Origin: Candidatus Poribacteria bacterium
GTDB lineage: Bacteria; Poribacteria; WGA-4E; WGA-3G
Assembly: GCA_964291315.2 (NCBI GenBank)
Contig: OZ219753.1
Coordinates: 1,088,001 to 1,152,000, forward strand
Direction: 5' to 3'
DNA: 64,000 bases
Below are positions 39,225 through 56,828 of the stretch, piece by piece (the first letter of the stretch is position 1; every line of letters starts with the position of its first letter). The notes below the pieces were generated by a model that saw only the letters and a list, made by a program, of their open reading frames with translations, did no database searches and was not told where the DNA came from. The position numbers were made by a program, and so were the translations under genes.

Positions 39225-42200
39225 ATGTCATATATACCCGTTGAAACTGTTGATACTATAACTGACTTTGAGACGCTCTTAGCGTTTTTTCGTGACACTC
39301 TCGACTGGCCGATCCCCGAAGACGTGACGCTCGGCGAGATAGCTTTCCCGTGGTCGTCATCAGAGCTGGAGCTTGATGAAACGTCTGAGGCACGAGTCGC
39401 TGACTGTCTGCAGCTGCCGCCGTTCGCGCGCGAGGCGTTGGGATTTTCTCCCGAGGTCGGCTCGCAGCCGTGGGGCATCTTCTTTGTTGAATTCAGCAGT
39501 GAGCGGGTGTATCGCACGGAGTTGCGGCGGGTTCTGCGAGGTCTGGTGGAGAGGCGCACCCGAGATGCACGGTTGCCTGCGTGGGAGCTGGATCATCTGC
39601 TGTTCATCTGCACGACTGCTGATTTTCATCGGTTTGCGTTTGCCCACTTCGCAGGTGCGGGTGCGTCTTGGCAGGATGCGGTGCTGTCTATATTCTCGTG
39701 GGATCGTGGGGATACGCACCTTCGGACGCTGTGTGAATACAACCTGCCGGCTCTGGCGTTTCCGCGTGGCGGTTTTTCGTCGTCGCAAGCGTGGGTTGCT
39801 AAATGGCAGCGTGCGTTTGATGTGGCGGCTGTGACGGATCAGTTTTTCCGTGAGTATAAGAGCGTCTTTGCGTTGGTGGAGGCCTCGCTGTCAGGGATCC
39901 CGGAGAGCGCTGTGGAGGCTCGTCGGTTGTATACGCAGCGTCTGTTGAATCGTTTGATGTTTCTGCGTTTTCTTGAGAGAAAGGGTTGGTTGCGGTATGC
40001 GGGTCGCCGGGACTACTTGCGTGCGTTGTATGAGGCTGCAATGGGCATCGAGACTCTCTCTGGCAGTGCGGAATCTATAAGAAGCGGGGGGGGTAATCTC
40101 TGATAAGCACAAGGCACCTCACACAGAGAGCTTGCTCAACGACCGGCTCTATTACGTCTTCTTCCACGGTCTCAGCAATCCCGCCGGTGAGTCCGGATCC
40201 GAAGATGCCGCCGCTCGCACCCGGCGCGGCGATGTGCCGTTCCTCAACGGTGGCCTCTTCGAGATGCAGCCGTATGATGAACAACACGCAGTGCATCTCC
40301 CGAACGACACCTTTGCCGACATCCTCAACCTCTTCGAACGTTATAACTTCACGATCACCGAGTCCACGCCGCTAGACATAGAGGTTGCAGTAGACCCGGA
40401 GATGCTGGGTAAGGTGTTTGAGGAACTGGTCACGGGGCGGCACGCCAGTGGGAGCTACTACACGCCGCGTGCGGTTGTCTCTTTCATGTGTCGGGAGAGC
40501 CTGAAGCTCTGCTTGCAGACGCAGACAACGGAGAGCGCGGCATGCCTGACACAGTTCGTAGACGGTGGCGATGCCACCGGTATTCGCGATTCAGAGGGCG
40601 TATTAGAGGTGCTGCGGAGCTTACGGGTGTGTGATCCTGCGTGTGGGAGCGGTGCGTACCTGCTCGGGATGATGGGCGAACTGCTTCGCCTGCGCGATGC
40701 TCTGTTCCAAAGCGATCAGACCGATCCCGGCACGGTGTATGAACGCAAGCTGGAGATTATTCAGCGGAACCTTTACGGTGTGGACAGAGACGACTTCGCG
40801 GTCAACATTGCGATGCTGCGCCTCTGGCTGAGCCTCACAGTAGACTACGAAGGCGCCGTGCCGCAGCCACTGCCGAACTTGGATTACAAGGTGGCGGTGG
40901 GAGACAGCCTGACCGGTGCAGCCCCCGAACAGCTGACGCTTGAAAGGCCGTTGATCCAAGCGATACAGGAGAAACAAGCGGACTATTTCATCACACACGG
41001 GGACGCAAAGAAAGAGGCACTCCGAGCGGAGATCGCCGCACTCCGAGCGGATCTTCAAGGCTGGCAAGATGCCCCGGAGGAGGCGTTTGTCTGGCAGGTT
41101 GAGTTTCCGGAGGTCTTCCAAGCGGGCGGTTTTGATGTTGTGATTGGCAACCCGCCTTATGTGCGACAAGAACTTATCAAAGCGATGAAGCCGACTTACA
41201 AACGGCTATTCCCAGAGGTGTATGTCGGCACCGCAGACCTCTACGTCTATTTTTACAAGCGCGGCACGGAGCTGCTGCGGAGGCACGGCATCTTGGCGTA
41301 TATCTCCTCGAACAAGTTTTTGCGGGCAGCGTATGGCAGAAAACTGCGTGCCTTTTTCTGCGATGCCCAACGCATTCAGCAGCTGCTTGACTTCGGGAGT
41401 GTCGCTGTCTTCAAAGCGAGTGTGGATACCTGTATCCTGATCCTTGAAAATGCTATATCAGAGGGAGCGCCTTTTTCGGTGGCGACGTTTCGGGAGGCGT
41501 CCGATGTGCTGCGGTTGTCTGCGGCGTTTCGGGATCGGGCGTTTCGGCTGCAGCCGCGTGATTTATCAGCGGAGGGCTGGACCTTGGCATCGCCCGAGAC
41601 ACTGCAGCTCCTGCGGAAACTCGAAACCACCGGCACACCCCTCGGCGAATATGTCAAGGAAGGTTTTTATATGGGAGTGAAGACAGGATATAACAAGGCA
41701 TTTATCATCGATGCGGCTGTGCGGCAGCGGCTGATCTCCGAGGATCCGAAGAGCGATGAGCTCATAAAGCCTTTGCTCAGAGGGCGTAATCTTCGTAAAT
41801 GGAAGGCAATACCCGCAAATGAATACCTAATAGTGATAGAGAGCAGTGCGAATAGAGACTGGCCCTGGTCAGATGCAAGCAACACCACAGAGGCAGAACG
41901 GATTTTTGCAAGAGCCTACCCCGCAATCCATCAACATTTGCTCGGCTATCGCAAGCGCTTGATCAAAAGGGACGATCAGGGCACATTTTATTGGGAACTT
42001 CGATCGTGTGCATACTATGCAGAGTTTGAAAAACCGAAGATTTTGTACTCAAAGATTTCAAAGGCTCTTTACGCAGTTTATGATACAACTGGGGCATACG
42101 GGTTAGACTCAACACACTTCATACCCATTAACGATCTTTCTGTCTTTGCTATTTTGAATAGTAGACTGTTTGACTGGTATGCACGCCATAAATTTCAGAG

Positions 42201-45004: not shown

Positions 45005-45777
45005 TGGCTAACGAGTCTTTGCGGCAGCAACTCGCTCTACTCTACCAATTGCAAGAACACGATTTGGAACTGTTATCTATCCGCGAAAAAATTCGGGCTA
45101 TCCCGGTGCAGATTGCACAATTAGCGGAGGGAGTCAAACGATATGAGGAAGAGATTGCGGTCAAATCGGCTGAACTTGAGGAAAAAGAGAAGGGGCAGCG
45201 TGCGAAAAACGCTGAGCTTGAAATGAACGCTGTGCAACGCGAAAAATACCGGACTGAACAACGGACGGTGACATCTAACGAAGCTTATACTGCCCTGGAA
45301 CGCCAGATCGAATTTCTGGATAGCAAAGATGAAGAGACTGAAGATGCCATCTTAGCTCTTATGGAAGAGAGTGACCAAGTAAAGGAAGCGCTGGCAAAAC
45401 TAGAAGCCGCGGTGAGTCGAGAAATAAAAAAAACAGATGTTCGAACGCAAGAACTCGAAGAAAAACTACATGCCTTAAAAACAGAGAGAGATGAAAAGTT
45501 AAAGCATCGGAAGACGTTCCTTCCAAAGGTCGATGAGAAGCTCAAAAGCGAATACCACAGATGGATGAAAGCTCGACTTTCAAACCGTTCTAAAACAGCA
45601 CAGACGAAAATAGGTTTTGTGGCATTAGTTAAAAGAGGTACTTGTGGTAGTTGCCGTATCGCCCTTCAACCGCAGACTCTTAAAGAGGCAGAAAAGTATC
45701 AGGAGCCGGTTTATTGTTCAAATTGTAAAAGGTTGCTCTATGTTGAGCCTGTTACACCGGGCATTCCTTTCCCCTGA
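45004..45777 (+). CDS. Coiled-coil protein with a C4 zinc ribbon (CT398/HP0958-like)
   Basis: 'LYQLQEHD', long coiled coil and 'CGSC...CSNCKRLLY'. Confidence 0.88.
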   Translation: MANESLRQQLALLYQLQEHDLELLSIREKIRAIPVQIAQLAEGVKRYEEEIAVKSAELEEKEKGQRAKNAELEMNAVQREKYRTEQRTVTSNEAYTALERQIEFLDSKDEETEDAILALMEESDQVKEALAKLEAAVSREIKKTDVRTQELEEKLHALKTERDEKLKHRKTFLPKVDEKLKSEYHRWMKARLSNRSKTAQTKIGFVALVKRGTCGSCRIALQPQTLKEAEKYQEPVYCSNCKRLLYVEPVTPGIPFP

Positions 45778-45850
45778 AAAAGATAGGTTTCTATAGTAGA
45801 TTTTTCCGTTTTGAAGAGATGTTTGATCAGAAAAGGATAAGAGGTTTACA

Positions 45851-46177
45851 ATGCCATTCTTTATCATCAATGAACAACCAGAAACGCAGATTTTTGACGG
45901 GGCCAGCATTCGGACCCTTCATGGTGAAAAAATAATGATGTCCTTTGTCGATTTGAAACCGCATAGCGTTGTTGCGGAACATAGCCATCCTCATGAGCAG
46001 ATGGGAATGGTACTTGAGGGGACGTTTGAATTAACTATTGATGGTGACTCCCGCCTCCTGAAAAAAGGAGATGCCTACCTCATTCCATCTCATGTGAAAC
46101 ACAGTGCAAAAGCGCTAGATGAACCTGCAGTTGCCCTCGACATTTTCAGTCCGCCGCGAGAAGATTACAAGCAGTGA
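45851..46177 (+). CDS. Cupin domain protein
   Basis: 'HSHPHEQ', 'GDAYLIPSHVKH' and 'DIFSPPREDY'. Confidence 0.92.
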   Translation: MPFFIINEQPETQIFDGASIRTLHGEKIMMSFVDLKPHSVVAEHSHPHEQMGMVLEGTFELTIDGDSRLLKKGDAYLIPSHVKHSAKALDEPAVALDIFSPPREDYKQ

Positions 46178-46929
46178 AGATGTATCAAGCCATTCAGGAA
46201 CTTGAAACCGTCGGCATCGTCACTGCCGGTACCACCTTCCGCCATGGAGGAGTTAGTCGTGGCCCATACGCCTCCATGAATCTTGCTGAACATGTTGGGG
46301 ACGATCTAAGTGCGGTTACAACCAACAGAGAGATTTTCTTTCGGCAAAGTGGGTTCACAGATATCCACTATTGCGAGCAGGTGCACAGTGCTTGTGTTAT
46401 TGACGTTGATCACACCCCGGGTGTAGTCTTCAAACAACATCCGGAAGCGGATGCCCTTATCTCGGCTCAAAGCGGGGTGCCCTTAGGTATATTCACAGCG
46501 GATTGTGTTCCTATATTCATCTTAGATGTTGCCACCCCTGCTGTTGGGATCGCTCACGCGGGCTGGCGGGGTACGCTTGCAGGAATCGCAATGAATACGC
46601 TTGAGCGCATGCAGACCTGTTTTGGAACTCACCCTATAAAGTGTCATGTCCATTTAGGCCCATCCATCCAAAAATGCTGCTATACCGTCAGTCCAGGATT
46701 GCTTGATCGATTTACGGTCCGCTTCGGGAACATCGTGCGCAGTGCTACAAACTTGAGCTTGCAAACCGCAAATGCTGTCCAATTAACCGAAATAGGTGTA
46801 CCCGCCTCCGCAATCTCAGTCTCCGCGTTCTGTACCGCCTGCCGTACCGACCTTTTTTTTTCTCACCGCGTAGAAGCGGGGAAAACAGGTAGGATGCTTT
46901 CATTTATTCAACTTGACGTGAAGAGCTAA
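46174..46929 (+). CDS. pgeF: PgeF/YfiH (laccase-domain) protein
   Basis: 'EQVHS', 'TADCVPI', 'HAGWRG', 'GPSI..CCY' and 'FFSHR'. Confidence 0.93.
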   Translation: MKMYQAIQELETVGIVTAGTTFRHGGVSRGPYASMNLAEHVGDDLSAVTTNREIFFRQSGFTDIHYCEQVHSACVIDVDHTPGVVFKQHPEADALISAQSGVPLGIFTADCVPIFILDVATPAVGIAHAGWRGTLAGIAMNTLERMQTCFGTHPIKCHVHLGPSIQKCCYTVSPGLLDRFTVRFGNIVRSATNLSLQTANAVQLTEIGVPASAISVSAFCTACRTDLFFSHRVEAGKTGRMLSFIQLDVKS

Positions 46930-47163
46930 CAACTATTCAAGAGGTCGGATTCTCGGATCTAACAAAAATTTGCATTTTGTGTAAAGATATAGTATTATTA
47001 ATATACATAATAGAAATGCCATCACTGGAAGGAGCGTGTCCGAGTCCTGCAGTCGTAACCTCACGCCGCTTCAGAACGTCTTTTTCCAAAGACCTGATTT
47101 TATTAAATACAATAGCCTTTAAAGACCGCTGTTCAGTAACAATTTAGTATATCTTGGAGGAAG

Positions 47164-47472
47164 GTGGAAATGCGAGTCTTTTTCATGGCGTTATCAATTA
47201 TCATAGGTATCATCGGGTTGGTTTTTATTTTACAAGGCGTTTATCACCCCTTCAAGTACCAAGAGGTGTTGTCTGAGAATGTGAGTGCAGTGCAAGTCAC
47301 GCAAGTCTATACAGAGGCAACGCACAGTATAGCAATAGGTATCGGTATCGTTAGTGTAGCGGTCTTAGTTGCGGTTATAGGTATACTCTTTTATATAAAC
47401 AAACCTATACAAGAACAAAAACGGCCGAGGAACGGTTCGAATACGCAAGCGCTGGGCGATTTTGCATCCTGA
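47164..47472 (+). CDS. Small two-TM hypothetical membrane protein
   Basis: RBS GGAGG; two hydrophobic segments. Confidence 0.6.
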   Translation: MEMRVFFMALSIIIGIIGLVFILQGVYHPFKYQEVLSENVSAVQVTQVYTEATHSIAIGIGIVSVAVLVAVIGILFYINKPIQEQKRPRNGSNTQALGDFAS

Positions 47473-47545
47473 CTCGTTCTTCTTAATTGTGCCAACTTTG
47501 GAATCGAAGGGCGTGATTTAGGACATCATACGAGGGCCATGTCAA

Positions 47546-48271
47546 TTGAAATCGATTGCCGATAACCTTTCTTGTATCAACCAGCGTATCGCCAACGCTG
47601 CTGCCCGCAGTAACCGCGCGGGAGGTTCAATAAGGCTTGTTGTTGTTACAAAAGGGCGTTCCGTTGCAGAGATGCAGGCGGTTCTTGCTACTGGGGTTGT
47701 GGACATCGGGGAAAATAGGGTTCAAGAAGCCCAACAGAAGTACACAATAGTGAATTCTTTGGTTGACACCGAGGTTGCTCCATCTGCTGATAGAGCATGC
47801 CGATGGCATCTCATCGGGCATTTGCAAAGAAATAAAGTCAAAACGGCATTAAACATCTTCTCGCTGATTCATTCGGTTGACAGTTTGCGACTTTTAGCGG
47901 AGATAGCACGCCGTTCTGAAGAATGCTCACAACAGACAGATGTTTTAATTCAGGTAAACACAACCGGTGAGGCTAGTAAATACGGTTTAGATGCGGATGG
48001 TTTGCTCGGATTTATGGAAGATGCGCAGGCGTACCCGCTAGTACATATTGCTGGATTGATGACGATAGGACAGTTAAGCCACTCACCTGATGTAAACCGG
48101 CCGGCATTTGCTTTGCTCAGATCACTTGCTGAAAAAATAGAATCCCAGAAATTCCCTGGAGTTACTATGCGGTATCTCTCGATGGGAATGACAAATGACT
48201 TTGAGGTTGCTATTGAAGAGGGGGCAAATCTTGTTAGAATTGGAACTGCAATCTTTTGCCCTTCAACGTAA
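47546..48271 (+). CDS. yggS: PLP homeostasis protein YggS
   Basis: 'VVTK', 'GENRVQE', 'WHLIGHLQRNK' and 'LSMGMTNDFEVAIEEGANLVRIG'. Confidence 0.96.
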   Translation: MKSIADNLSCINQRIANAAARSNRAGGSIRLVVVTKGRSVAEMQAVLATGVVDIGENRVQEAQQKYTIVNSLVDTEVAPSADRACRWHLIGHLQRNKVKTALNIFSLIHSVDSLRLLAEIARRSEECSQQTDVLIQVNTTGEASKYGLDADGLLGFMEDAQAYPLVHIAGLMTIGQLSHSPDVNRPAFALLRSLAEKIESQKFPGVTMRYLSMGMTNDFEVAIEEGANLVRIGTAIFCPST

Positions 48272-48320
48272 GTTTCAAACATATAGTAGCAAGCGGTGGA
48301 AATTCTAAGAGGAAAAGACA

Positions 48321-49133
48321 GTGGTAGAAGACCTTCGATTAGGTGTGATAGGCGTTGGAAAGATGGGTGGCATCGTTGTGCGCGGTATTGCTGGAAAGGC
48401 GTTCCCCTCACGGCAGATTTGGGTTACAGATCTGGATACGCGGCTCGTCAGGCAGCTCTGTGATGAAAAGGGCACAAATGACGCTGGGGACATTGATACC
48501 TTGGTAGAAAAGACCGACGTGATTCTCTGTGCAGTGCCTCCCGCGGCTGTTCCGCACATTCTGCCACAAGTTGCATGCAATTTATCAAGGGCGCAATCGC
48601 TGATTAGCATCGCTGCCGGTGTGTCGACAACAACGCTCGAGTCCTATTTTGATACACCACCTGCTGTTGTTCGGGTGATGCCGAATATCGCGGCTTCGGT
48701 AGGTGCAGCGATCTCGGTACTAACAGTGGGTAGCACAGCGAATAAAGAACATCTTGCAATAGCAGAGAGAATTTTCAACGCCTGTGGCAGCACTTTAGTC
48801 ATGGAAGAACGTCATCTTGATGCGGTCACCGGTGTGAGTGGGAGTGGCCCCGCCTATGTTGCTCTTTTTATTGAAGCTTTGGCTGATGCTGGTGTGCACG
48901 CGGGCTTACCTCGGTCAGATGCGCAAAAACTTGCAACACACACCGTATTAGGTTCAGCAGCGATGTTAGCCAGAACACAAGAACATCCTGCGATTCTAAA
49001 GAATCGAGTTACAACACCGGGTGGGACAACTGCCGCTGGACTCCATGCTTTGGAAAAAGGGGGCTTGAGGGCAACGCTTACTGAAGCCATTCTCGCCGCA
49101 ACTCAACGTTCAAAAGAACTCGACAACACATAA
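48321..49133 (+). CDS. proC: Pyrroline-5-carboxylate reductase
   Basis: 'IGVGKMG', 'ISIAAG', 'VMPN', 'SGSGPAY' and 'TTPGGTT'. Confidence 0.96.
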   Translation: MVEDLRLGVIGVGKMGGIVVRGIAGKAFPSRQIWVTDLDTRLVRQLCDEKGTNDAGDIDTLVEKTDVILCAVPPAAVPHILPQVACNLSRAQSLISIAAGVSTTTLESYFDTPPAVVRVMPNIAASVGAAISVLTVGSTANKEHLAIAERIFNACGSTLVMEERHLDAVTGVSGSGPAYVALFIEALADAGVHAGLPRSDAQKLATHTVLGSAAMLARTQEHPAILKNRVTTPGGTTAAGLHALEKGGLRATLTEAILAATQRSKELDNT

Positions 49134-49157
49134 GATCGGAAAATAACAGAAAAAATT

Positions 49158-49424
49158 ATGGATCTACTGGCTTGGGTTCTCAGTCAGCTTATTGACCTTT
49201 ATGTATTCGTCGTCATAGGAAACGCTATTCTTTCATGGTTTGTTTATGGCACACAAAATTCGACAATCAGGCAGATCTATTGGTGGACAAGTCGCATCGT
49301 GGATCCGGCGCTGGGTCCGATTCGCAGGGCCCTCGGACCAATGTCTCGAAATCTTGGTATTGACCTCTCTCCATTTATCCTGATTTTTTTGTTAATGATC
49401 TTGCAGCGGGCCCTCTTGCCATAA
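49158..49424 (+). CDS. yggT: YggT family membrane protein
   Basis: 'ILSWF...DPALGPIRR...IDLSPFI'. Confidence 0.92.
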   Translation: MDLLAWVLSQLIDLYVFVVIGNAILSWFVYGTQNSTIRQIYWWTSRIVDPALGPIRRALGPMSRNLGIDLSPFILIFLLMILQRALLP

Positions 49425-49519
49425 ACAGGGGTGAGGCGATTAGTATAAACGAAGGACAACCGTACCAGAGATCTGTTCGATAAAACAGTAAATGCTTTAG
49501 AAGCGAGCGTACGAAAAAT

Positions 49520-52288
49520 ATGGATAAAGGAACTCTGTCCGCGAAAGGCGCGACACGTAAATCTGGGAAAATAGGCGAGGCATCAGGTTCTCACCAGCTA
49601 ACCGACCGGGTAGAAGAAAAAGCGATGCTCGACATCTGGGCAGATCTCAATATTTACGCTATATTGAGTAAAGAAAGTAACACAACGGATGCTAACCCGG
49701 AACAGACCTCTCCCTCCTTTGAAACTCAAGCTTATGTGCTTCGCGAGATGCCTACTCTTGTTCATCAATTGACCCTTGACACGTTTTGTAGAAAGATTAT
49801 TCAGGATATTTTCCTGAAAGCTGAGTCAATGTGCGGCCATCGCGTCACATACGTCCCGGTGTGGGAAACTTACTCGCTCTGGATAGAAGAACAGGTTATC
49901 GCAGCAGCGAAATCCAAATCTCCAATCAAACTCTCTGCTCTTCGGAAGCGGTGCCGGGCTCGCCACAAACAGGCTTTAGAAACCCAGAAGAAGAGGTTGC
50001 ATGAGCTCGGTATTTTTGCTGATTGGGATACCTCGCAGAAGAGGCTTGAATCGCGGCAAGAAGCGAGACTCATCGCTCTTATTAGTCGATTACGGGATTC
50101 TGGCTACCTCTATGACATCCCTCAACTCAGTCCCTGGTGTCCCAAATGCACAATTCCGCTTAATGAAACCAGTGGTATACAGAGGCCAACGCAGGCATTG
50201 AAAAGCTTTGTAAAGTTTCCGTTCAATGTTGGCTTAGAGGAATTTGGCACTAATGTTTTCTTCTGTGTGCAGCTGCCTTACCTTCGAGAAATAGCAGGGA
50301 CGGTGGAATTAGGGATTACTGAGAATACCACCTATTGGCTCACTCAATTCGCGTCTGAATTTCTGCTTTTCACCGAACCACAGTTGAAAAATTTCTGTCA
50401 ACATCTTGCTAAGAGCCAACGTTATCCTAGACGGATTAAAGAGATCAAGGCAACTGAACTTACAGGATGCACTGTAGCCCATCCGCTTTTTCCATCAAAA
50501 AAGTTAGATATTAGGTTGATTCCTGAACGTTTCATCAAAGATGTTCCACATTTGCAATCGACGGATCTCTTAAAATCCGGTGTTCTGCCTCTAAGTCCGG
50601 CTCATGATCAACTCAGCTACGACATTGCACAAGAATTAAAAATGGTTTCCACGCCTATTTTTGACGAAACGGGAAGGTTGACAGAAGAAGCTGGTCACTT
50701 GTGCGGTTTATATCTATCTGATGTTGAAAAGCCTATTATCCTGCAATTAGAAAAGTTTGGATACCTTCTGAAAAGATATAACGAAGAACAGCACGAACCG
50801 CACTGTCCTCGCTGCGGGGAATTAGCAGTTTTGCGCCCGTGTTCACAATGGGAATTCTCTATTACTGAAAATCCTGCCACTGTCCAATCCCTCAACGCCC
50901 AAGATCATTGGGATAATTATGGGAACACGGAACACAAAAATATTGTTGATGTCCGAGCGGCAGTGCTGAATTTCAACAGTTTGCAAGTTTCATCACAACG
51001 CCAATGGGGGATGCCTTTACCAATATTGCTCTGTGACCAGTGTGATAAACCTCTGGCGGATAAAAATACGCTCAGCGCCATCAGGAACTCTGTCCAGCGT
51101 GGGTTTGAATCTTGGTTTCGATTAAGTGTAGAGGAGCTCTTACCGGCCAATACTCACTGTCCGAGCTGTACTTCAAGTGAATTCCGTAAAGAAGCTACGA
51201 TCATTGACTGCCATTTTGCAAACTTACTTCAAATTGTTGACAGTTCCGATTTCAAGAAAGCGCTTGGTGGTTCGACAAGCATCATGTTCGTTCCACAACC
51301 GAGTCAGAGTGATTCTAAGTGGATAAGATGGTTGGCTGAAATCAGTGTTATCTCCGCTGCGCTTACCAGAAGCCGTCCGATTAAAGAAAGTCAGCCTTTT
51401 AAACAACTAAAACTTGATGCGCTGCCAAAAATTAGCAGCAACATCGAAATTGAGGAGGCTTTCCTGAACAAATATCCAGCGGATGTGTTACGTCTTGTTG
51501 CCATGACAGCTGATCTGAGTGAGCAACGGGTTACGCAGCAACGTCTTGAGGAGATTGCAGAGGATCGCCTAATCGAGTATCAACAGCTACAAACCTTCTT
51601 AGCACACGTTAGTTTTCTCGTCCGTAGATTGCGGGAGGAAGGAAAAGATAATAGAGAGGGACATACCGAAAACGGAGACGCGAATAAAACGGATCGGTTC
51701 TCCTCTCCGGGAGAAACACGTGAGGTCAATCGGCACCCCCAGACCTCTGATGAACAGCAGGTGGAACAAGAGGATATTCACCTTGCGGGGGCACCGGCAG
51801 AACCTAATCTCGAAACATTAGATATGAATGGGCTCAGAACTACCGTCGCTGATCAAAGTTTCACTACTGATTTAGTTGTAACAACCGTTACGGCTCAGTT
51901 TCTGAAAGAAGTAGAGACGGCTTATCAACATCGACGTTTCCATGAGATGTGGAAAATGTTAACGACTTTCTGTAAGCAAGATCTTGGATTCTACGTGCAC
52001 TTGTTTGAATCGGGTGATGCTGCAATTGTTGACACAGCGCGGGACAGACTTCCACAAATCAGCATCGCGCTTCTTCAACGTTTCGCGCCGCTGACTCCTT
52101 TTTTGGCGGAACATTTCTATCGTCTGATCTCTTCAGCGGACGGAAGCGATAAGCAGAGCATTTTTCAGAAAAGCTGGCGTTCAGTGTCGCCTGCAATTAG
52201 GCAAGATATGGGGGTTTCCCCTACCAAGAAAGATGATGCAAAAGCGGAATGGGAGGCCCTCAAAAATGTCCATAATACAGAAGTCTAA
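49520..52288 (+). CDS. Isoleucyl-tRNA synthetase-like protein with degenerate catalytic motifs
   Basis: Collinear with IleRS (YVPVWETYSLWIE, HPLF, SQRQWGMPLP, ADVLRL, APLTPFLAE) and located upstream of lspA, but lacks HIGH and KMSKS. Confidence 0.8.
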   Translation: MDKGTLSAKGATRKSGKIGEASGSHQLTDRVEEKAMLDIWADLNIYAILSKESNTTDANPEQTSPSFETQAYVLREMPTLVHQLTLDTFCRKIIQDIFLKAESMCGHRVTYVPVWETYSLWIEEQVIAAAKSKSPIKLSALRKRCRARHKQALETQKKRLHELGIFADWDTSQKRLESRQEARLIALISRLRDSGYLYDIPQLSPWCPKCTIPLNETSGIQRPTQALKSFVKFPFNVGLEEFGTNVFFCVQLPYLREIAGTVELGITENTTYWLTQFASEFLLFTEPQLKNFCQHLAKSQRYPRRIKEIKATELTGCTVAHPLFPSKKLDIRLIPERFIKDVPHLQSTDLLKSGVLPLSPAHDQLSYDIAQELKMVSTPIFDETGRLTEEAGHLCGLYLSDVEKPIILQLEKFGYLLKRYNEEQHEPHCPRCGELAVLRPCSQWEFSITENPATVQSLNAQDHWDNYGNTEHKNIVDVRAAVLNFNSLQVSSQRQWGMPLPILLCDQCDKPLADKNTLSAIRNSVQRGFESWFRLSVEELLPANTHCPSCTSSEFRKEATIIDCHFANLLQIVDSSDFKKALGGSTSIMFVPQPSQSDSKWIRWLAEISVISAALTRSRPIKESQPFKQLKLDALPKISSNIEIEEAFLNKYPADVLRLVAMTADLSEQRVTQQRLEEIAEDRLIEYQQLQTFLAHVSFLVRRLREEGKDNREGHTENGDANKTDRFSSPGETREVNRHPQTSDEQQVEQEDIHLAGAPAEPNLETLDMNGLRTTVADQSFTTDLVVTTVTAQFLKEVETAYQHRRFHEMWKMLTTFCKQDLGFYVHLFESGDAAIVDTARDRLPQISIALLQRFAPLTPFLAEHFYRLISSADGSDKQSIFQKSWRSVSPAIRQDMGVSPTKKDDAKAEWEALKNVHNTEV

Positions 52289-52775
52289 AATATCTTGGCA
52301 AACTGCTGCGCCACTAATCAACGTAGCGGTCCCGATGCTAATATTGGATTGGGTGAGTAAGTGGTTTGTGCAAATGCATATCACTCAGATCACAGAAGTG
52401 ATTCCGATCATTCCAGGGTTCTTTAATCTCCGGCATGATAGAAATACGGGGGCAGCTTTCGGTGTGCTTGCGGGACACAGAGTTTTACTTATTTTGATTA
52501 CTATCGCTGCCTTAGTTTTCATCATCACATACTATTTACGTTTCAAGGAGAGTCGCTGGATGCAAACCTCACTCGGCTTTCTGCTTGGTGGTGCTATTGG
52601 CAACTTTATTGACAGGATTCGCCTGGGTGAAGTCGTCGATTTCCTTCAATTCGGTATAGCAAGTAAAGGATTGTATTGGCCAACGTTCAACATTGCTGAT
52701 GTTTCCGTCTGTATTGGGGCAGGCATGCTAATTGTTTATCTATTTCGCCATCGTAATGAAAATTATCAAGACTGA
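52266..52775 (+). CDS. lspA: Lipoprotein signal peptidase II
   Basis: 'DWVSK', 'NTGAAFG', 'GAIGNFIDR', 'VVDF' and 'FNIAD'. Confidence 0.96.
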   Translation: MSIIQKSKISWQTAAPLINVAVPMLILDWVSKWFVQMHITQITEVIPIIPGFFNLRHDRNTGAAFGVLAGHRVLLILITIAALVFIITYYLRFKESRWMQTSLGFLLGGAIGNFIDRIRLGEVVDFLQFGIASKGLYWPTFNIADVSVCIGAGMLIVYLFRHRNENYQD

Positions 52776-52851
52776 CTATTGAGAGATCCACAAACAGGCC
52801 TGTGAGTCTATTCGGAAATCCAAAACTGCTTTTCATTTAGGAACGTGATCT

Positions 52852-53415
52852 ATGTATAAATTTGTCACTCAGTTTCTCACGCTTAGCTGCCTTGCGCTTA
52901 CAATAGTCTCAAATGCAGAAGCGCAATTTCGGGTAGCGCCGCCAGAAAATCAGACGCAACAAGGGGCATCGGAAAAGTATAGTGAAAGTGCGTTGCGTCG
53001 TTTTGAGATTATTACGTTGAGTTCACTGCCGTTCACTGCTGTTCACAGCTACGCGATTGTGCGCGGCATTAAAATGTACACCGAAAATCAATTTGCCCCT
53101 GAGTTATCCGTTGCGGACTATCGGGTAATCGGTATCGGTGCGGTCTCTTTGTCTCTATTTATCGGATTGTGGGATTGGTTCCATACCCGCAAAGTGGACC
53201 GGGCTGCACCACGTATTCCTGAAAGAACCAAACCTCCGTTGCCTGAAGAGGAAGAGCCTATAGAAGGGCCAATCGCTCGTCTGTCGAACACCGCGCCATA
53301 CGCAGCAAAATATAGAGGCGGATCTCTAGAAGGATCGATAGATAAAGCTCTGAATAGATGGACAAATGAGCCCGCTGCTGGTTTTGCTATATCGTTTATT
53401 CAAATTCGTTTCTAA
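52852..53415 (+). CDS. Hypothetical membrane protein
   Basis: Signal-like N-terminus and TM segments; fits the operon spacing. Confidence 0.7.
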   Translation: MYKFVTQFLTLSCLALTIVSNAEAQFRVAPPENQTQQGASEKYSESALRRFEIITLSSLPFTAVHSYAIVRGIKMYTENQFAPELSVADYRVIGIGAVSLSLFIGLWDWFHTRKVDRAAPRIPERTKPPLPEEEEPIEGPIARLSNTAPYAAKYRGGSLEGSIDKALNRWTNEPAAGFAISFIQIRF

Positions 53416-53453
53416 CTTTGGTTAATCTACTGGAATGGCTGTACAACTACAAA

Positions 53454-54407
53454 ATGCGCACTCTCTTTATGGGTACCAGCGAGTTTGCTGTTCCTGCCCT
53501 CAAATCGCTCATTTCACACAATTTTGAACTTGTAGGTGTTGTTACGCAGCCTGATCGTCCAAGTGGGCGCGGGCGGCGATTCAACCCGTCGCCTGTCAAA
53601 GTTGTAGCAACACAACACAACTTACCGATTTATCAGCCTATTCGGGCGCGAAATCAGGATTTCGTTCGGACTCTTAAAAATCTCATTCCTGATGTAATTG
53701 TTGTTGCTGCTTTCGGCCAACTTTTGCCGCAGACGGTTTTAGATATTCCGCCGTGCGGAACTATCAACCTGCATCCATCCATTCTTCCAAAGTATCGTGG
53801 TGCTGCGCCTATTCAATGGGCGTTAATTAATGGGGAGGAGGAAACAGGGGTGACACTAATGTTATTAGATGCTGGTGAGGATACAGGTGACATTATCTGC
53901 TCGGAGCGGATCCGAATTGAAAACGCAGACACGGCTTTTACTTTGACAGATCAGTTAGCAAATCTCGGTGCAAAAGGGCTTATCCGGGTACTATCAGACA
54001 TGCCAGGGAATGCTCCGCCACCTGCGACACCCCAGAATGACGCGGAAGCGACACACGCTCCCCGCTTGACAAAAGAGTCCGGGCATATGAATTGGAATCA
54101 ACCGGCAACTGCAATCCACAATCTTGTGAGGGGGACAGCAATCTGGCCAGGTGCGTACACCTTTTTTCGCGAGAATATTAGGCTCAAAATTATCAGCTGT
54201 CAACCACAGCCACAGCTGCTCGATGTGCCGCCGGGAACGCTCGAAATAGTAGGAAGGCAAAAACTGTTTGTTGCGACAGGTGATGGGGCACTCCAGCTTT
54301 TGCGAATGCAACCGGCAACTAAAAAGGCGATGGAAGCGCGAGATTTTATCAACGGCTATCAACTCCGAACGAGCGACCGATTCCTAACACAAGCGCAAAA
54401 TGAATGA
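53454..54407 (+). CDS. fmt: Methionyl-tRNA formyltransferase
   Basis: 'FMGTSEFA', 'TQPDRPSGRG' and 'NLHPSILPKYRGAAPIQW'. Confidence 0.97.
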   Translation: MRTLFMGTSEFAVPALKSLISHNFELVGVVTQPDRPSGRGRRFNPSPVKVVATQHNLPIYQPIRARNQDFVRTLKNLIPDVIVVAAFGQLLPQTVLDIPPCGTINLHPSILPKYRGAAPIQWALINGEEETGVTLMLLDAGEDTGDIICSERIRIENADTAFTLTDQLANLGAKGLIRVLSDMPGNAPPPATPQNDAEATHAPRLTKESGHMNWNQPATAIHNLVRGTAIWPGAYTFFRENIRLKIISCQPQPQLLDVPPGTLEIVGRQKLFVATGDGALQLLRMQPATKKAMEARDFINGYQLRTSDRFLTQAQNE

Positions 54408-55377
54408 CCTTAATAATACCTTATTTGCGACCTTCAAGGTTTTCCTCTATCTCTTAATACTGCTTGGTATAGCGGGGCTGTTAGTTATTTTTGTGATTAT
54501 TCCAAGGTGGGTTCGGACCGAGGAGGTACTCGTTCCGAATATTGTCGGTAAAACCTACTATGAAGCTGTTCGTATTCTTGGTGATGTTGGTCTCCAACCT
54601 TCAGAAACTCTTCAAGAAGCCAGCAGTAGTGCCCCTAAGGGTGAAGTTGTTATCCAAAACCCGCAGGCTAATTTTAGGATCAAGCACTACCAGCCTGTTC
54701 AAATCACAGTGAGTATTGGTGCGGAACTGACCCCTGTTCCTTCTGTTATTGGCAAATTGCAGGATGTGGCCTTTGATGTCTTAACTGCGGCTGGATTTCG
54801 TCCGAACCGGGTCGCCTACGTTCATTCTGAAAATTATGTCCAAGGCACTGTGATTGCACAAACCCCACCGGAGGGTGGCGGTCAACAACGTGGAGCCCCG
54901 GTCAACCTCCTTGTGAGCCGCGGCCCGACACCACAATCCCTACAGCTTCCGAATTTTCAAAAGCAGCCTGCGAATGATGTTGTATCTACGCTAGAGGGTG
55001 TCGGCCTAAAAATTGAAACACGATATAGCTCCCATCCGACGATTCCTGCTGGCGCGATTATTACCCATAACCCTTCAGCTGGCGCGATGGTCCAAACTGG
55101 AGATTTAGTTCTCCTTGAAATCAGTGGTGTGCAAGGCACCTCCCAAAAGATTGGTAGTCCCTTACCGTTCAAGCATACTGTCAGCGAAGAAGGGAAACTA
55201 TCGCGCCATGTCAGAATTGTTATAATTGACGACTACGGTGAACGCACTGAAATAGATCAGCACTATGCCCCCGGCACAGTGATTGACTTGGAACGAAAAG
55301 GGGTTCGAGTTTTTGGCAAGACACGCGTGATTATCCACGAAAATGGTGAAAAATTGCCCGAAGTCATTTATAATTAA
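54400..55377 (+). CDS. PASTA-domain membrane protein (3 PASTA repeats)
   Basis: N-terminal TM; 'VPNIVGK', 'VPSVIGK' and 'LPNF' repeats with 'G.VI.Q.P'. Confidence 0.9.
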   Translation: MNDLNNTLFATFKVFLYLLILLGIAGLLVIFVIIPRWVRTEEVLVPNIVGKTYYEAVRILGDVGLQPSETLQEASSSAPKGEVVIQNPQANFRIKHYQPVQITVSIGAELTPVPSVIGKLQDVAFDVLTAAGFRPNRVAYVHSENYVQGTVIAQTPPEGGGQQRGAPVNLLVSRGPTPQSLQLPNFQKQPANDVVSTLEGVGLKIETRYSSHPTIPAGAIITHNPSAGAMVQTGDLVLLEISGVQGTSQKIGSPLPFKHTVSEEGKLSRHVRIVIIDDYGERTEIDQHYAPGTVIDLERKGVRVFGKTRVIIHENGEKLPEVIYN

Positions 55378-55398
55378 GATGAGCTAAGGAGGACAGAA

Positions 55399-56058
55399 AT
55401 TTCTACGCTTAAGATTGCTCCCTCACTGCTCGCTGCTGACTTCAGTCGGCTCGGTGAAGAGGTAAGACGCATAGTCGCTGCCGGTGCTGATATGTTGCAT
55501 TTTGACGTGATGGATGGTGAATTCGTCCCGAATTTTGGTATCAGTCCGCCGTTCATCGCTGCTGTGCGCGAAATGACACAAATTGCTTTTGATGTGCATA
55601 TCATGGTGATGCATCCGATTCGCTATATTGACGCGCTCGCTGCAGCAGGGGCCGATATAATCACCTTCCACATTGAGAGTAAAGATAAGCCAGAAACGGT
55701 AATTTCTGCAATAAAAGCACATGGGCTTAAGAGCGGACTCGCGCTTTCACCTAAAACCCCCGTCTCTACAGTTATACCCTATTTCTCGGACATCGACTTG
55801 GTCCTATCAATGAGTGTTGATCCTGGGTTCGGAGGTCAAGTTTTCCAACACAATGCTCTTGAAAAAATAGCGTCCTTGCATCAAATAGCGCAGAAATTGA
55901 AACCGGCTCTTGAGATATCGGTCGATGGTGGCGTAACTACAGAGATTGCCCCGCTTGCAATTCGGCAAGGGGTTACAATTCTTGTGGCAGGTACGGCTAT
56001 TTTCCGGAGCGAAAACCCGGAATCAGTTATTGAAAGACTTCGGACCGCCGCCGCTTAA
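55399..56058 (+). CDS. rpe: Ribulose-phosphate 3-epimerase, apparent ATT start
   Basis: In-frame KIAPSLLAADF lies upstream of the ORF-track Met; 'HFDVMDGEFVPN' and 'MSVDPGFGGQ'; RBS AAGGAGG 6 nt before ATT. Confidence 0.93.
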   Translation: MSTLKIAPSLLAADFSRLGEEVRRIVAAGADMLHFDVMDGEFVPNFGISPPFIAAVREMTQIAFDVHIMVMHPIRYIDALAAAGADIITFHIESKDKPETVISAIKAHGLKSGLALSPKTPVSTVIPYFSDIDLVLSMSVDPGFGGQVFQHNALEKIASLHQIAQKLKPALEISVDGGVTTEIAPLAIRQGVTILVAGTAIFRSENPESVIERLRTAAA

Positions 56059-56102
56059 GGCACCGGAGCCGCCGCTCTTTAGCGCAAGAGGTGCCATATT
56101 AG

Positions 56103-56828
56103 ATGCACACCTTCTATGTTCCACCTTCTCATATCGACACTAACACCGTCACAATTACTGGCTCGGAACAGCACCATCTCCGCAATGTCTTACGTATAGT
56201 GCCTGGAAAGAGTATTCGAATTATTGATGGAAAAGGCAACGTCTATATTGCAGAGACTCTTGCTTCACTTGCACATCGATCCTCAAGCGAAGCGCGAATT
56301 CATACCCACAAATTTCATCCGAAACCTTCACCTACTCTTGTGCTGTTCCAAGGGATCCCTAAAAACGACAAGATGGAACTGATTTTGCAGAAAACGACAG
56401 AACTCGGGGTTACGCAAATTGTACCGCTCCATTCGGAGCGCGCCTTTCAAAAACCGAGTCAAAGGCGGTATGCGCGTTGGCACCGCATTGTTATTTCTGC
56501 TACGAAGCAGTGCAAACGCGCGTGGTTACCGAAGTTAAGCGAGGCGCAGCAGTTTGAGGCATATCTGACACAACTCAAAAATTTTTCGCTCCGGCTGCTT
56601 CTTAGTCCTCGCGCAGAGACACAACACATTAAGACAGTCCTACAAGAGACTTGTAAAACGGATGCCGTTGCAGTTTTCGTCGGCCCTGAAGGTGGATTTT
56701 CGGATCAGGAGATCACGGCAGCGATTGGAAGCGGTTGTATCCCTGTCACGCTTGGTGCAAATGTTTTGCGAACAGAAACTGCCGCCATTGCTGCTGTTGC
56801 TGTTACTGCCTACGAATATCAATTATAG
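56103..56828 (+). CDS. rsmE: 16S rRNA m3U1498 methyltransferase
   Basis: 'HHLRNVLR', 'QKTTELGV', 'GPEGGFS' and 'LRTETA'. Confidence 0.96.
   Translation: MHTFYVPPSHIDTNTVTITGSEQHHLRNVLRIVPGKSIRIIDGKGNVYIAETLASLAHRSSSEARIHTHKFHPKPSPTLVLFQGIPKNDKMELILQKTTELGVTQIVPLHSERAFQKPSQRRYARWHRIVISATKQCKRAWLPKLSEAQQFEAYLTQLKNFSLRLLLSPRAETQHIKTVLQETCKTDAVAVFVGPEGGFSDQEITAAIGSGCIPVTLGANVLRTETAAIAAVAVTAYEYQL

Follow-up and report, generated by a model that had tools for sequence, protein, structure and literature searches.

Which protein is encoded at the place of ileS, between yggT and lspA, when the frame has the length of an isoleucyl-tRNA synthetase (IleRS) and the signatures of that enzyme are replaced? 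The question is raised by a stretch of 64,000 nucleotides from a Candidatus Poribacteria bacterium (assembly GCA_964291315.2, contig OZ219753.1, positions 1,088,001 to 1,152,000, forward strand), here called the window, to which all coordinates refer unless stated otherwise. The source genome comprises 4.40 Mb in 4 contigs and is 95.2% complete. The gene is a single open frame of 922 codons at 49520..52288 on the plus strand, running from ATG to TAA, and its product is termed psi-IleRS. An earlier note, made from the letters of the sequence, had described an uninterrupted 922-codon frame collinear with IleRS, and had proposed that the ancestral enzyme was displaced by another copy and repurposed as a non-catalytic tRNA/RNA-binding or regulatory protein. 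The frame was confirmed here and is collinear with the whole IleRS type 1 (IleRS1) fold. In answer to the question, psi-IleRS is very probably a selected, non-aminoacylating derivative of IleRS1.

Catalytic and editing motifs of psi-IleRS

The product was matched by two Pfam families above their gathering thresholds, PF00133 tRNA-synt_1 (80.9 bits, residues 88-667, threshold 22.7) and PF08264 Anticodon_1 (35.7 bits, residues 789-892, threshold 25.1). Against the NCBIfam ileS equivalog TIGR00392 it reached 182.7 bits (149.2 bits in the genome scan), below the curated cut-off of 621.4, and the NCBIfam models for valS, leuS, MupA and MupB scored it below the ileS model.

Motif states were read from alignments with IleRS1 8c9e and 16 intact IleRS1 representatives. 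The signature DGPPYANG.IH.GH is replaced by REMPTLVHQLTLDT, in which T85-L86-D87-T88 is the equivalent of HxGH, and PGWDxHGLP by PVWETYSLW (113-121). The Asp of the latter motif, which we take to be the amino-group-binding residue, is Glu (E116) in psi-IleRS. In the editing domain, inserted as connective peptide 1 (CP1), WTTTPWT reads QLPYLRE (251-257) and GTGxVHxAPxHGxxD reads SGVLPLSPAHDQLS (353-366). These four replacements had been named in the earlier note and were borne out by the alignments; WFDSG, now HFANL (565-569), and EGxDQxRGWF, now QSDSKWIRWL, are losses additional to its list. The letters SSQRQWG had been given correctly for SRQRxWG, a motif that is retained. One entry had to be amended: KMSKS is lost as claimed, but its equivalent by alignment is ALPKI (A634-I638), and the proposed KISSN (637-641) lies three residues beyond. 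At 95 positions altogether, a residue conserved to at least 90% among the 16 intact IleRS1 has been given up in a set of 17 diverse psi-IleRS relatives; P78, W115 and W604 are retained in psi-IleRS.

The residues needed for isoleucine activation (HxGH, KMSKS, WFDSG, EGxDQ) are thus lost, as do those for the hydrolysis of mischarged tRNA (WTTTPWT and the His/Asp editing motif). Measured as a functional isoleucine-tRNA ligase, psi-IleRS falls short in model score, in TLDT and ALPKI at the HxGH and KMSKS positions, and in QLPYLRE and SGVLPLSPAHDQLS at the CP1 editing signatures, and on sequence grounds neither aminoacylation nor editing can be assigned to it.

Other parts described in the earlier note were recovered. 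Four CxxC pairs are present (C207/C210, C429/C432, C505/C508, C547/C550), and all eight cysteines are invariant or nearly so in the 17 diverse relatives, C207 being invariant and C210 at least 90% conserved. The anticodon-binding domain is kept, as its PF08264 match indicates, and the acidic insert (residues 713-780, net charge -10) was likewise found; it is absent or shorter in most orthologues, with a gap fraction of 0.70 at residues 721-750. The zinc-binding C-terminal domain typical of IleRS1 is missing from the window protein, as had been noted: the chain stops about 40 residues past the anticodon-domain motif SIFQKSW, and the zinc finger is still present in the deeper relatives P0127 and the G041 protein. 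The N-terminal tail has a net charge of +3 in the window protein and a basic median of +7 in the orthologues. The features of the gene are listed below with their evidence, where dN/dS is the ratio of nonsynonymous to synonymous substitution obtained by Nei-Gojobori pairwise counting and pLDDT is the predicted local distance difference test of the AlphaFold2 (AF2) model.

49520..52288 (stop codon included), plus strand: psi-IleRS, IleRS1-derived pseudo-synthetase of 922 amino acids (aa) (open reading frame (ORF), Pfam, TIGR00392, AF2 model, IleRS1 fold matches)
49520..49609, plus strand: N-terminal tail, aa 1-30, predicted disordered (pLDDT about 31; dN/dS 0.40)
49718..50164, plus strand: first half of the Rossmann fold, aa 67-215, apparently catalytically dead, strongly constrained (dN/dS 0.052)
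49772..49783, plus strand: HxGH remnant T85-L86-D87-T88 (alignments)
49856..49882, plus strand: PVWETYSLW, aa 113-121, replacing PGWDxHGLP, with W115 invariant and Asp changed to Glu (alignments)
50138..50149, plus strand: CxxC 1 (C207, C210), first half of the CP1 zinc knuckle (conservation)
50165..50854, plus strand: CP1/editing domain, aa 216-445, fold kept and hydrolytic motifs lost (dN/dS 0.105; alignments)
50216..50248, plus strand: family-specific motif FPxxxGLEEFG, aa 233-243, at the entry of the editing domain (conservation in 17 diverse relatives)
50270..50290, plus strand: QLPYLRE, aa 251-257, replacing the editing peptide WTTTPWT (alignments)
50576..50617, plus strand: SGVLPLSPAHDQLS, aa 353-366, replacing GTGxVHxAPxHGxxD (alignments)
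50804..50815, plus strand: CxxC 2 (C429, C432), second half of the CP1 zinc knuckle (conservation)
50855..51439, plus strand: second half of the Rossmann fold with the CP2/CP3 region, aa 446-640, SSQRQWGMPLP kept, WFDSG and EGxDQ lost (dN/dS 0.077)
51032..51043, plus strand: CxxC 3 (C505, C508), invariant in relatives
51158..51169, plus strand: CxxC 4 (C547, C550), invariant in relatives
51419..51442, plus strand: KMSKS loop remnant A634-L635-P636-K637-I638, followed by S-S-N, gappy and unconserved in relatives (alignments)
51656..51859, plus strand: acidic, disordered, lineage-variable insert, aa 713-780 (charge -10; pLDDT below 50 at 715-778; dN/dS 0.47)
51860..52189, plus strand: helical anticodon-binding-type domain, aa 781-890, kept but relaxed (PF08264 at 789-892; dN/dS 0.26)

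Descent from IleRS1 and the working IleRS2 of the genome

In a phmmer search of the PDB sequences, residues 36-681 of psi-IleRS matched Priestia megaterium IleRS1 8c9e with 113 bits and S. aureus IleRS 1ffy with 106 bits, followed at lower scores by IleRS2 8c9d (70 bits) and T. thermophilus IleRS (58 bits). The AF2 model, computed from a 47-row alignment, has a mean pLDDT of 81.5 and a predicted template modelling score of 0.80, and only residues 1-28, 54-66 and 715-778 are disordered. When this model was compared with the PDB by Foldseek, the comparison with IleRS structures that the earlier note had proposed, IleRS1 came out on top (8c9f/8c9e, E about 1e-36, TM 0.64-0.66; 1qu2, TM 0.66), followed by IleRS2, eukaryotic IleRS, ValRS and LeuRS. 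psi-IleRS is accordingly predicted to fold like IleRS1.

A quick posterior mean site frequency (PMSF) tree of 43 rows separated IleRS1 together with all motif-less proteins from IleRS2 with a support of 100, and united the Poribacteria psi-IleRS proteins (11 rows, the member of family f10 included) with a support of 100; a FastTree of 121 rows agreed. By sequence, structure and tree, psi-IleRS is nearest to IleRS1 and descends from it, not from IleRS2, ValRS or LeuRS. A second motif-less clade of 8 rows (support 99) was placed elsewhere among IleRS1, and P0172, which falls among IleRS1 in the PMSF tree, was left out of the group for the approximately unbiased (AU) test. An independent origin of the second clade was considered on account of the separation in the free tree (supports 99 and 100), but one joint clade of all motif-less proteins was not rejected in the AU test (log-likelihood difference 3.0, p-AU 0.41); in these quick searches, both analyses are subject to the effects of long branches.

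The second motif-less IleRS1-like group consists of P0147, P0150, P0161, P0176, P0177, P0245 and the metagenome loci L154 and L180. Its proteins have about 840-950 aa, are without HxGH and KMSKS, and carry GW(D/E)xHGL-like motifs and the C-terminal zinc finger; two members bear Armatimonadota names in their sources, and a homologue of lspA lies about 1 kb downstream at L154 and L180. Among 80 loci from a metagenome scan for this clade, 75 had a KMSKS-type match, 3 had HxGH with KQSKS, and only L154 and L180 were motif-less. The metagenome loci L151, L161 and L199 encode otherwise intact IleRS1 with KQSKS for KMSKS, plus HLGH or HIGQ. Further motif-less groups are represented by P0155, P0175, P0179, P0181, P0183 and P0194.

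Five class Ia loci were found in the genome by PF00133, namely a 912-aa frame that is ValRS by sequence, a 1070-aa frame, a LeuRS-sized frame, psi-IleRS and a MetRS-sized frame. The only one above the ileS cut-off was the 1070-aa frame with 962.7 bits (TIGR00392), located at C4:3211285-3213792 (locus L002, 229..3441, minus strand). It carries GVHH (PPGVHHV) at the HxGH position together with WTTTPWT, SRERYWG, WFDSG and KMSKS, and would be classified in the terms of PMC10485003 as an IleRS2 with the non-canonical G/AxHH signature, which is tied there to mupirocin hyper-resistance. PPGVHHV was visible in 8 of 12 other IleRS2 genes from Poribacteria, and the printed stretch of the other 4 ends before that position. 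When five deep genomes (G041, G045, G051, G053, G057) were searched for ileS, four contained an IleRS2-sized locus over the cut-off, and G057 gave a 438-bit match in a frame cut by the end of a contig. Isoleucyl-tRNA thus appears to be made by a separate IleRS2 with GVHH, encoded elsewhere in the genome. The search for a functional ileS that the earlier note had called for therefore succeeded, psi-IleRS not being the only ileS of the genome, and the suggested displacement by a copy such as IleRS2 was upheld.

Distribution, synteny and purifying selection

Open orthologues of psi-IleRS were found in 24 of 24 genomes of the same genus (identity 59-72%), and all 20 fetched same-genus loci were open. 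In a word-indexed protein search, 7999 candidates were scored and 213 of them reached E<=0.001; identities of 54-71% were recorded for the 120 that were listed. A scan of genome contigs confirmed 124 relatives, of which 80 were kept, all from Poribacteria metagenome-assembled genomes or 'uncultured bacterium' records (identity 34-70%); the counts over 80 loci given below refer to this set. The gene reads through without interruption over 854-964 codons in 80/80 loci, and all domains persist in them.

Over the phylum, a match at E<=1e-20 was present in 154 of 176 Poribacteria genomes, distributed over families f1 (110/111), f3 (25/29), f4 (6/7), f5 (3/3), f8 (7/8), f9 (1/1) and f10 (1/2). It was absent from family f2 (0/11), from genus g3 of f3 (0/4) and from the single genomes of f6, f7 and f11, some of the negative genomes being only 61-79% complete. 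The deepest members examined, from G041 (f10), G051, G053, G056, G049 (f8) and G057 (f9), are all without HxGH, KMSKS and WFDSG, and the loss of catalysis is therefore at least as old as the sampled phylum, the dead copy having arisen at or before the base of the Poribacteria.

The place of the gene is equally constant. In the window it belongs to a row of plus-strand genes in the order pgeF (Cu-oxidase_4), yggS, proC, yggT, psi-IleRS, lspA, an unassigned 187-aa protein, fmt and a gene for a PASTA-domain protein, with the following immediate neighbours.

49158..49424, plus strand: yggT, conserved upstream neighbour (Pfam PF02325, 56.8 bits)
52233..52775, plus strand: lspA, signal peptidase II (Pfam PF01252 Peptidase_A8, 138 bits)

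The same order, pgeF-yggS-proC-yggT-psi-lspA-unk187-fmt-PASTA, was the usual one over 88 loci, which comprise the 80 from the contig scan and 8 from more distant relatives; yggT lies upstream in 87/88 and lspA downstream in 85/88. The ancestral ileS-lspA locus recognised in the earlier note is thus a fixed place. LspA-homologous coding begins 11-56 nt before the psi-IleRS stop in 68/78 loci, and in the window the 5' end of lspA overlaps the 3' end of the gene by 56 nt. In five of five negative genomes examined (G037, G025, G028, G029 and G026; loci L129-L133), lspA follows yggT at about 120-600 nt and the rest of the gene order is unchanged. The gene was cleanly excised in f2 and f3/g3, and its neighbours were left undisturbed.

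For close pairs, dN/dS was 0.08-0.26 for psi-IleRS and 0.04-0.08 for IleRS2 of the same genome pairs. The dN of psi-IleRS relative to IleRS2 ranged from 0.4 to 4.6, with most genome pairs at 2-3.5; in the pair L011/L016 psi-IleRS was the slower protein (ratio 0.4). Pooled over eight phylogenetically separate pairs, dN/dS was 0.168 with a bootstrap 95% confidence interval (CI) of 0.150-0.188, so that the orthologues, whose collection had been proposed in the earlier note, are neither frameshifted nor neutral. The chance of 922 codons staying open is about (61/64)^922, roughly 1e-19 by simple arithmetic. Since the frame is open in 80/80 loci and evolves at a dN/dS of 0.17, it is kept by purifying selection and not by chance, and the earlier note was right to take the long open frame as a sign of selection rather than decay, even if constraint is lower than in IleRS2 (0.04-0.08). 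psi-IleRS appears to be kept as an intact, predicted folded, two-zinc protein.

Constraint is unevenly distributed. The dN/dS values of psi-IleRS were 0.052 in the first Rossmann half, 0.105 in CP1/editing and 0.077 in the second Rossmann half with CP2/3, compared with 0.046, 0.105 and 0.030 in IleRS2 (5 pairs). They rose to 0.33 in the KMSKS/stem-contact region and 0.26 in the anticodon domain, compared with 0.052 and 0.086 in IleRS2, whose C-terminal domains stand at 0.10; the N-tail (0.40), insert (0.47) and C-tail (0.49) were the most relaxed parts. The constraint on the dead Rossmann body and on CP1 matches that in the working IleRS2, whereas the parts holding the tRNA body and the anticodon are 3 to 6 times more relaxed. 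Anticodon-directed tRNA binding is disfavoured by this relaxation of the anticodon and KMSKS/stem-contact regions (0.26-0.33 vs 0.05-0.09 in IleRS2). In IleRS1 the zinc-binding C-terminal domain recognises the anticodon (PMC13752280), and its absence argues against psi-IleRS as a specific reader of the tRNA(Ile) anticodon. The repurposing proposed in the earlier note therefore stands as to descent, displacement and selection, and the role of a tRNA/RNA binder or regulator is no more than a proposal.

At least 97% conservation in 81 sequences was found at 178 of the 922 positions, with the best blocks at 91-120, 151-210, 481-570 and 601-630, and the replaced pocket residues R75, E76, E116, N568 and Q571 are conserved to that degree in the 81 Poribacteria sequences. 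When the 17 diverse relatives, which reach down to 21% identity, are compared, the invariant positions comprise the CxxC cysteines, core Trp, Gly and Pro residues, R179, R439, D655, R658, E864 and the FPxxxGLEEFG loop. In this loop P234, G238, E240 and G243 are invariant and are not IleRS1 consensus residues. Of the positions at least 80% conserved in the 17 relatives, 65 agree with the IleRS1 consensus, and the 20 that are specific to the family are clustered at 234-243.

Role of psi-IleRS and comparison with known systems

On balance, the reading we favour is that psi-IleRS is an ancient pseudoenzyme derived from IleRS1, the selected, non-aminoacylating role of which would reside in the core/CP1/zinc-knuckle body. 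A full-length descendant of IleRS1 would have stayed at the ancestral yggT-ileS-lspA position, and IleRS2 would have taken over charging. The retained role would be borne by the Rossmann/CP1/CP2 body, the two zinc knuckles and the FPxxxGLEEFG loop; it is placed there since these are the parts on which constraint is concentrated, those for the tRNA body and the anticodon being relaxed or lost. Most likely the body would offer a surface to which a macromolecular partner or the tRNA acceptor end binds, rather than recognise the anticodon, and binding through the core/CP1 body as the actual role is put forward tentatively. The conserved overlap with lspA in 68/78 loci suggests translational coupling in addition, in which translation of psi-IleRS probably delivers ribosomes to the lspA start and adds pressure for an open frame; coupling cannot explain a dN/dS of 0.05-0.10.

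Several observations weigh against this reading. The losses in f2 (0/11) and f3/g3 (0/4) mean that the gene is not essential everywhere, and in most pairs its amino-acid sequence evolves 2-3.5 times faster than that of IleRS2. The residues conserved throughout the clade are mostly structural types inherited from IleRS1 (65 compared with 20 family-specific ones), a pattern equally expected if an obligatorily translated frame were selected only to yield a soluble and harmless product. No overall gain of positive charge pointing to RNA binding was seen, the isoelectric point being about 6 and only the N-terminal tail basic, and RNA binding through overall charge was rejected as a candidate on these grounds.

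A frame that is open, and a product that is foldable, only through coupling to lspA would need no function of the protein itself, stops being polar on lspA and an obligatorily translated product having to remain soluble. The 11-56 nt overlap in 68/78 loci, the prevalence of Trp, Cys, Gly and Pro among the clade-wide invariants, typical of fold maintenance, the relaxed tails, insert, KMSKS region and anticodon-binding domain, and the dispensability in f2 and g3 all agree with such a gene. It is nevertheless improbable: a core dN/dS of 0.05-0.10 equals that of the essential IleRS2 and lies far below what selection against stops alone would leave, in-frame deletions should have shrunk a useless frame of 2.7 kb over the age of the phylum and all domains persist in 80/80 loci, expression of lspA is possible in the absence of psi-IleRS, as is shown by the clean deletions in f2 and g3, and an invariant, family-specific GLEEFG loop has been gained. 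A similarly small chance is given to a new, ATP-independent enzyme that would act on aminoacyl-tRNA or the tRNA 3' end, in the manner of cyclodipeptide synthases and SbzA, and turn one of the former pockets, synthetic or editing, to new chemistry. Constraint on the catalytic body, dead as it is, and on CP1 is indeed as strong as in an active enzyme, the replaced pocket residues R75, E76, E116, N568 and Q571 are at least 97% conserved in the 81 Poribacteria sequences, and SbzA, an IleRS homologue transferring Ile from Ile-tRNA, offers a precedent (PMC9437257, PMC12945691). However, the former pocket positions are unconserved across the deeper clade, so that a shared set of catalytic residues cannot be made out; HYGH and AMSKA are both present in SbzA and both missing from psi-IleRS; the neighbours are housekeeping genes and not a biosynthetic cluster; and the tRNA-holding parts are relaxed or lost.

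That psi-IleRS is a divergent but active isoleucyl-tRNA synthetase, serving as a second housekeeping or stress enzyme, is very improbable in spite of its full-length IleRS architecture, both zinc knuckles, SSQRQWG and the kept P78, W115 and W604. HxGH, KMSKS, WFDSG and EGxDQ are all replaced and variable among relatives, the ileS model score is less than one third of the cut-off, and an intact IleRS2 is present in the genome; even the swap of HxGH alone to GxHH was not tolerated by IleRS1, which then yielded no product (PMC10485003). An ordinary pseudogene in slow decay, still open by chance, is scarcely credible. It would account for the erosion of all catalytic motifs, for an evolution faster than that of IleRS2 in most pairs and for the loss in some lineages, but it is contradicted by the open frames in 80/80 plus 20/20 loci, and a dN/dS of 0.168 (CI 0.150-0.188), not near 1, the phylum-wide spread with fixed synteny and the confident predicted fold speak against it as well.

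With bacterial IleRS1 (Priestia megaterium 8c9e; S. aureus 1ffy/1qu2), psi-IleRS shares the multi-domain fold, the domain order and the place upstream of lspA, and it differs in the replaced signatures, the missing C-terminal zinc domain and the added acidic insert and N-terminal tail. HisZ, a HisRS paralogue without charging activity, is the regulatory subunit of ATP-phosphoribosyltransferase; it resembles psi-IleRS in being synthetase-derived and is kept for a non-translational role, but it is a truncated class II protein with a kept amino-acid pocket and a known partner, whereas psi-IleRS is a full-length class I protein in which the pocket is not conserved. Cyclodipeptide synthases have a class Ic-like fold without ATP motifs and thus share with psi-IleRS a class I synthetase-like Rossmann body devoid of ATP-binding signatures; their small, single-domain form, defined catalytic serine and biosynthetic contexts were not found for psi-IleRS. 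Both are looser analogies; HisZ is tabulated in the review PMC9437257, and cyclodipeptide synthases are mentioned in PMC9437257 and PMC12945691.

Closer cases have been described. LeuRS-I of the Sulfolobaceae is a second, non-aminoacylating class Ia LeuRS in which the CP1 editing domain is disrupted and an acidic region has diverged; binding of tRNA(Leu) and formation of leucyl-adenylate are nevertheless reported for it (PMC9437257). Like psi-IleRS it is a class Ia paralogue with disrupted CP1 that is kept by the organism beside a working enzyme; unlike psi-IleRS it is archaeal, has a LeuRS parent and forms the adenylate, the motifs for which are gone in psi-IleRS, and this motif loss argues against adenylate formation by the latter. 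LeuRS2 of the Halobacteria is also among the closest described cases (PMC9437257, PMC12945691). SbzA transfers Ile from Ile-tRNA(Ile) to altemicidin (PMC9437257, PMC12945691); it keeps HYGH and AMSKA, charges weakly and lies in a biosynthetic cluster (PMC12945691). It shares with psi-IleRS the derivation from IleRS and the full IleRS architecture, and its role is other than housekeeping charging. In psi-IleRS, the motifs that SbzA retains are lost, and the neighbours are pgeF, yggS, proC, yggT, lspA and fmt.

HxGH was present in all IleRS1 sampled in PMC10485003, where no IleRS1 with a non-canonical signature was found. A later IleRS database discarded sequences with less than 30% identity to a reference IleRS (PMC13752280), a filter by which the psi-IleRS family would be hidden. 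Full-text literature searches turned up neither an IleRS-derived pseudoenzyme nor this Poribacteria gene, and such sequences might be contained in the trees and alignments that supplement PMC10485003 and PMC13752280. Proteins that derive from synthetases and have taken on new roles are known (HisZ, LeuRS-I, SbzA); what appears to be new, with no counterpart in the literature searched, is an IleRS1 that is catalytically dead yet full-length and spread over a phylum, with an active-site body under the same constraint as that of the living enzyme. psi-IleRS may show, as a natural experiment, which parts of a class Ia synthetase persist once catalysis is gone, and it offers a dated example of the displacement of IleRS1 by a GxHH-type IleRS2, a type reported to be mupirocin hyper-resistant, in a phylum of sponge symbionts. 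It also touches on annotation, deeper relatives being named 'isoleucyl-tRNA synthetase' and close orthologues 'class I tRNA ligase family protein' by their sources.

A wider proposal, which we regard as rather unlikely, is that IleRS1 itself has a second, non-catalytic function in the Rossmann/CP1/zinc-knuckle body that suffices to keep the protein once IleRS2 performs the charging. In this function the GLEEFG loop and the zinc knuckles could serve to bind aminoacyl-tRNA, the acceptor end of tRNA or another protein. If true, it would explain the dead IleRS1 at the lspA locus throughout the Poribacteria, and also the motif-less IleRS1-like proteins upstream of lspA in other bacteria, two of them named Armatimonadota.

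A few further observations concern the surroundings of the gene. In a promoter and terminator scan of 45500-56500, predicted sites were not above those in shuffled sequence (11 vs 14.4 and 14 vs 10.7, respectively), and operon boundaries were not derivable from them. Rfam searches at gathering thresholds gave 0 matches in the window and the IleRS2 locus, with no T-box or other leader, and no tRNA genes were found within the window. The composition profile showed a G+C peak of 0.561 at 40001..42000, compared with 0.43-0.52 elsewhere, and no rRNA, tRNA or Rfam family was found in that interval. The 187-aa protein encoded at 52852..53415 on the plus strand has a signal-peptide-like N-terminus and no Pfam match; it directly follows lspA in 84/88 Poribacteria loci and is also present in 5 loci without psi-IleRS. 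An ORF for a hydrophobic protein of 102 aa lies between pgeF and yggS at 47164..47472 on the plus strand.

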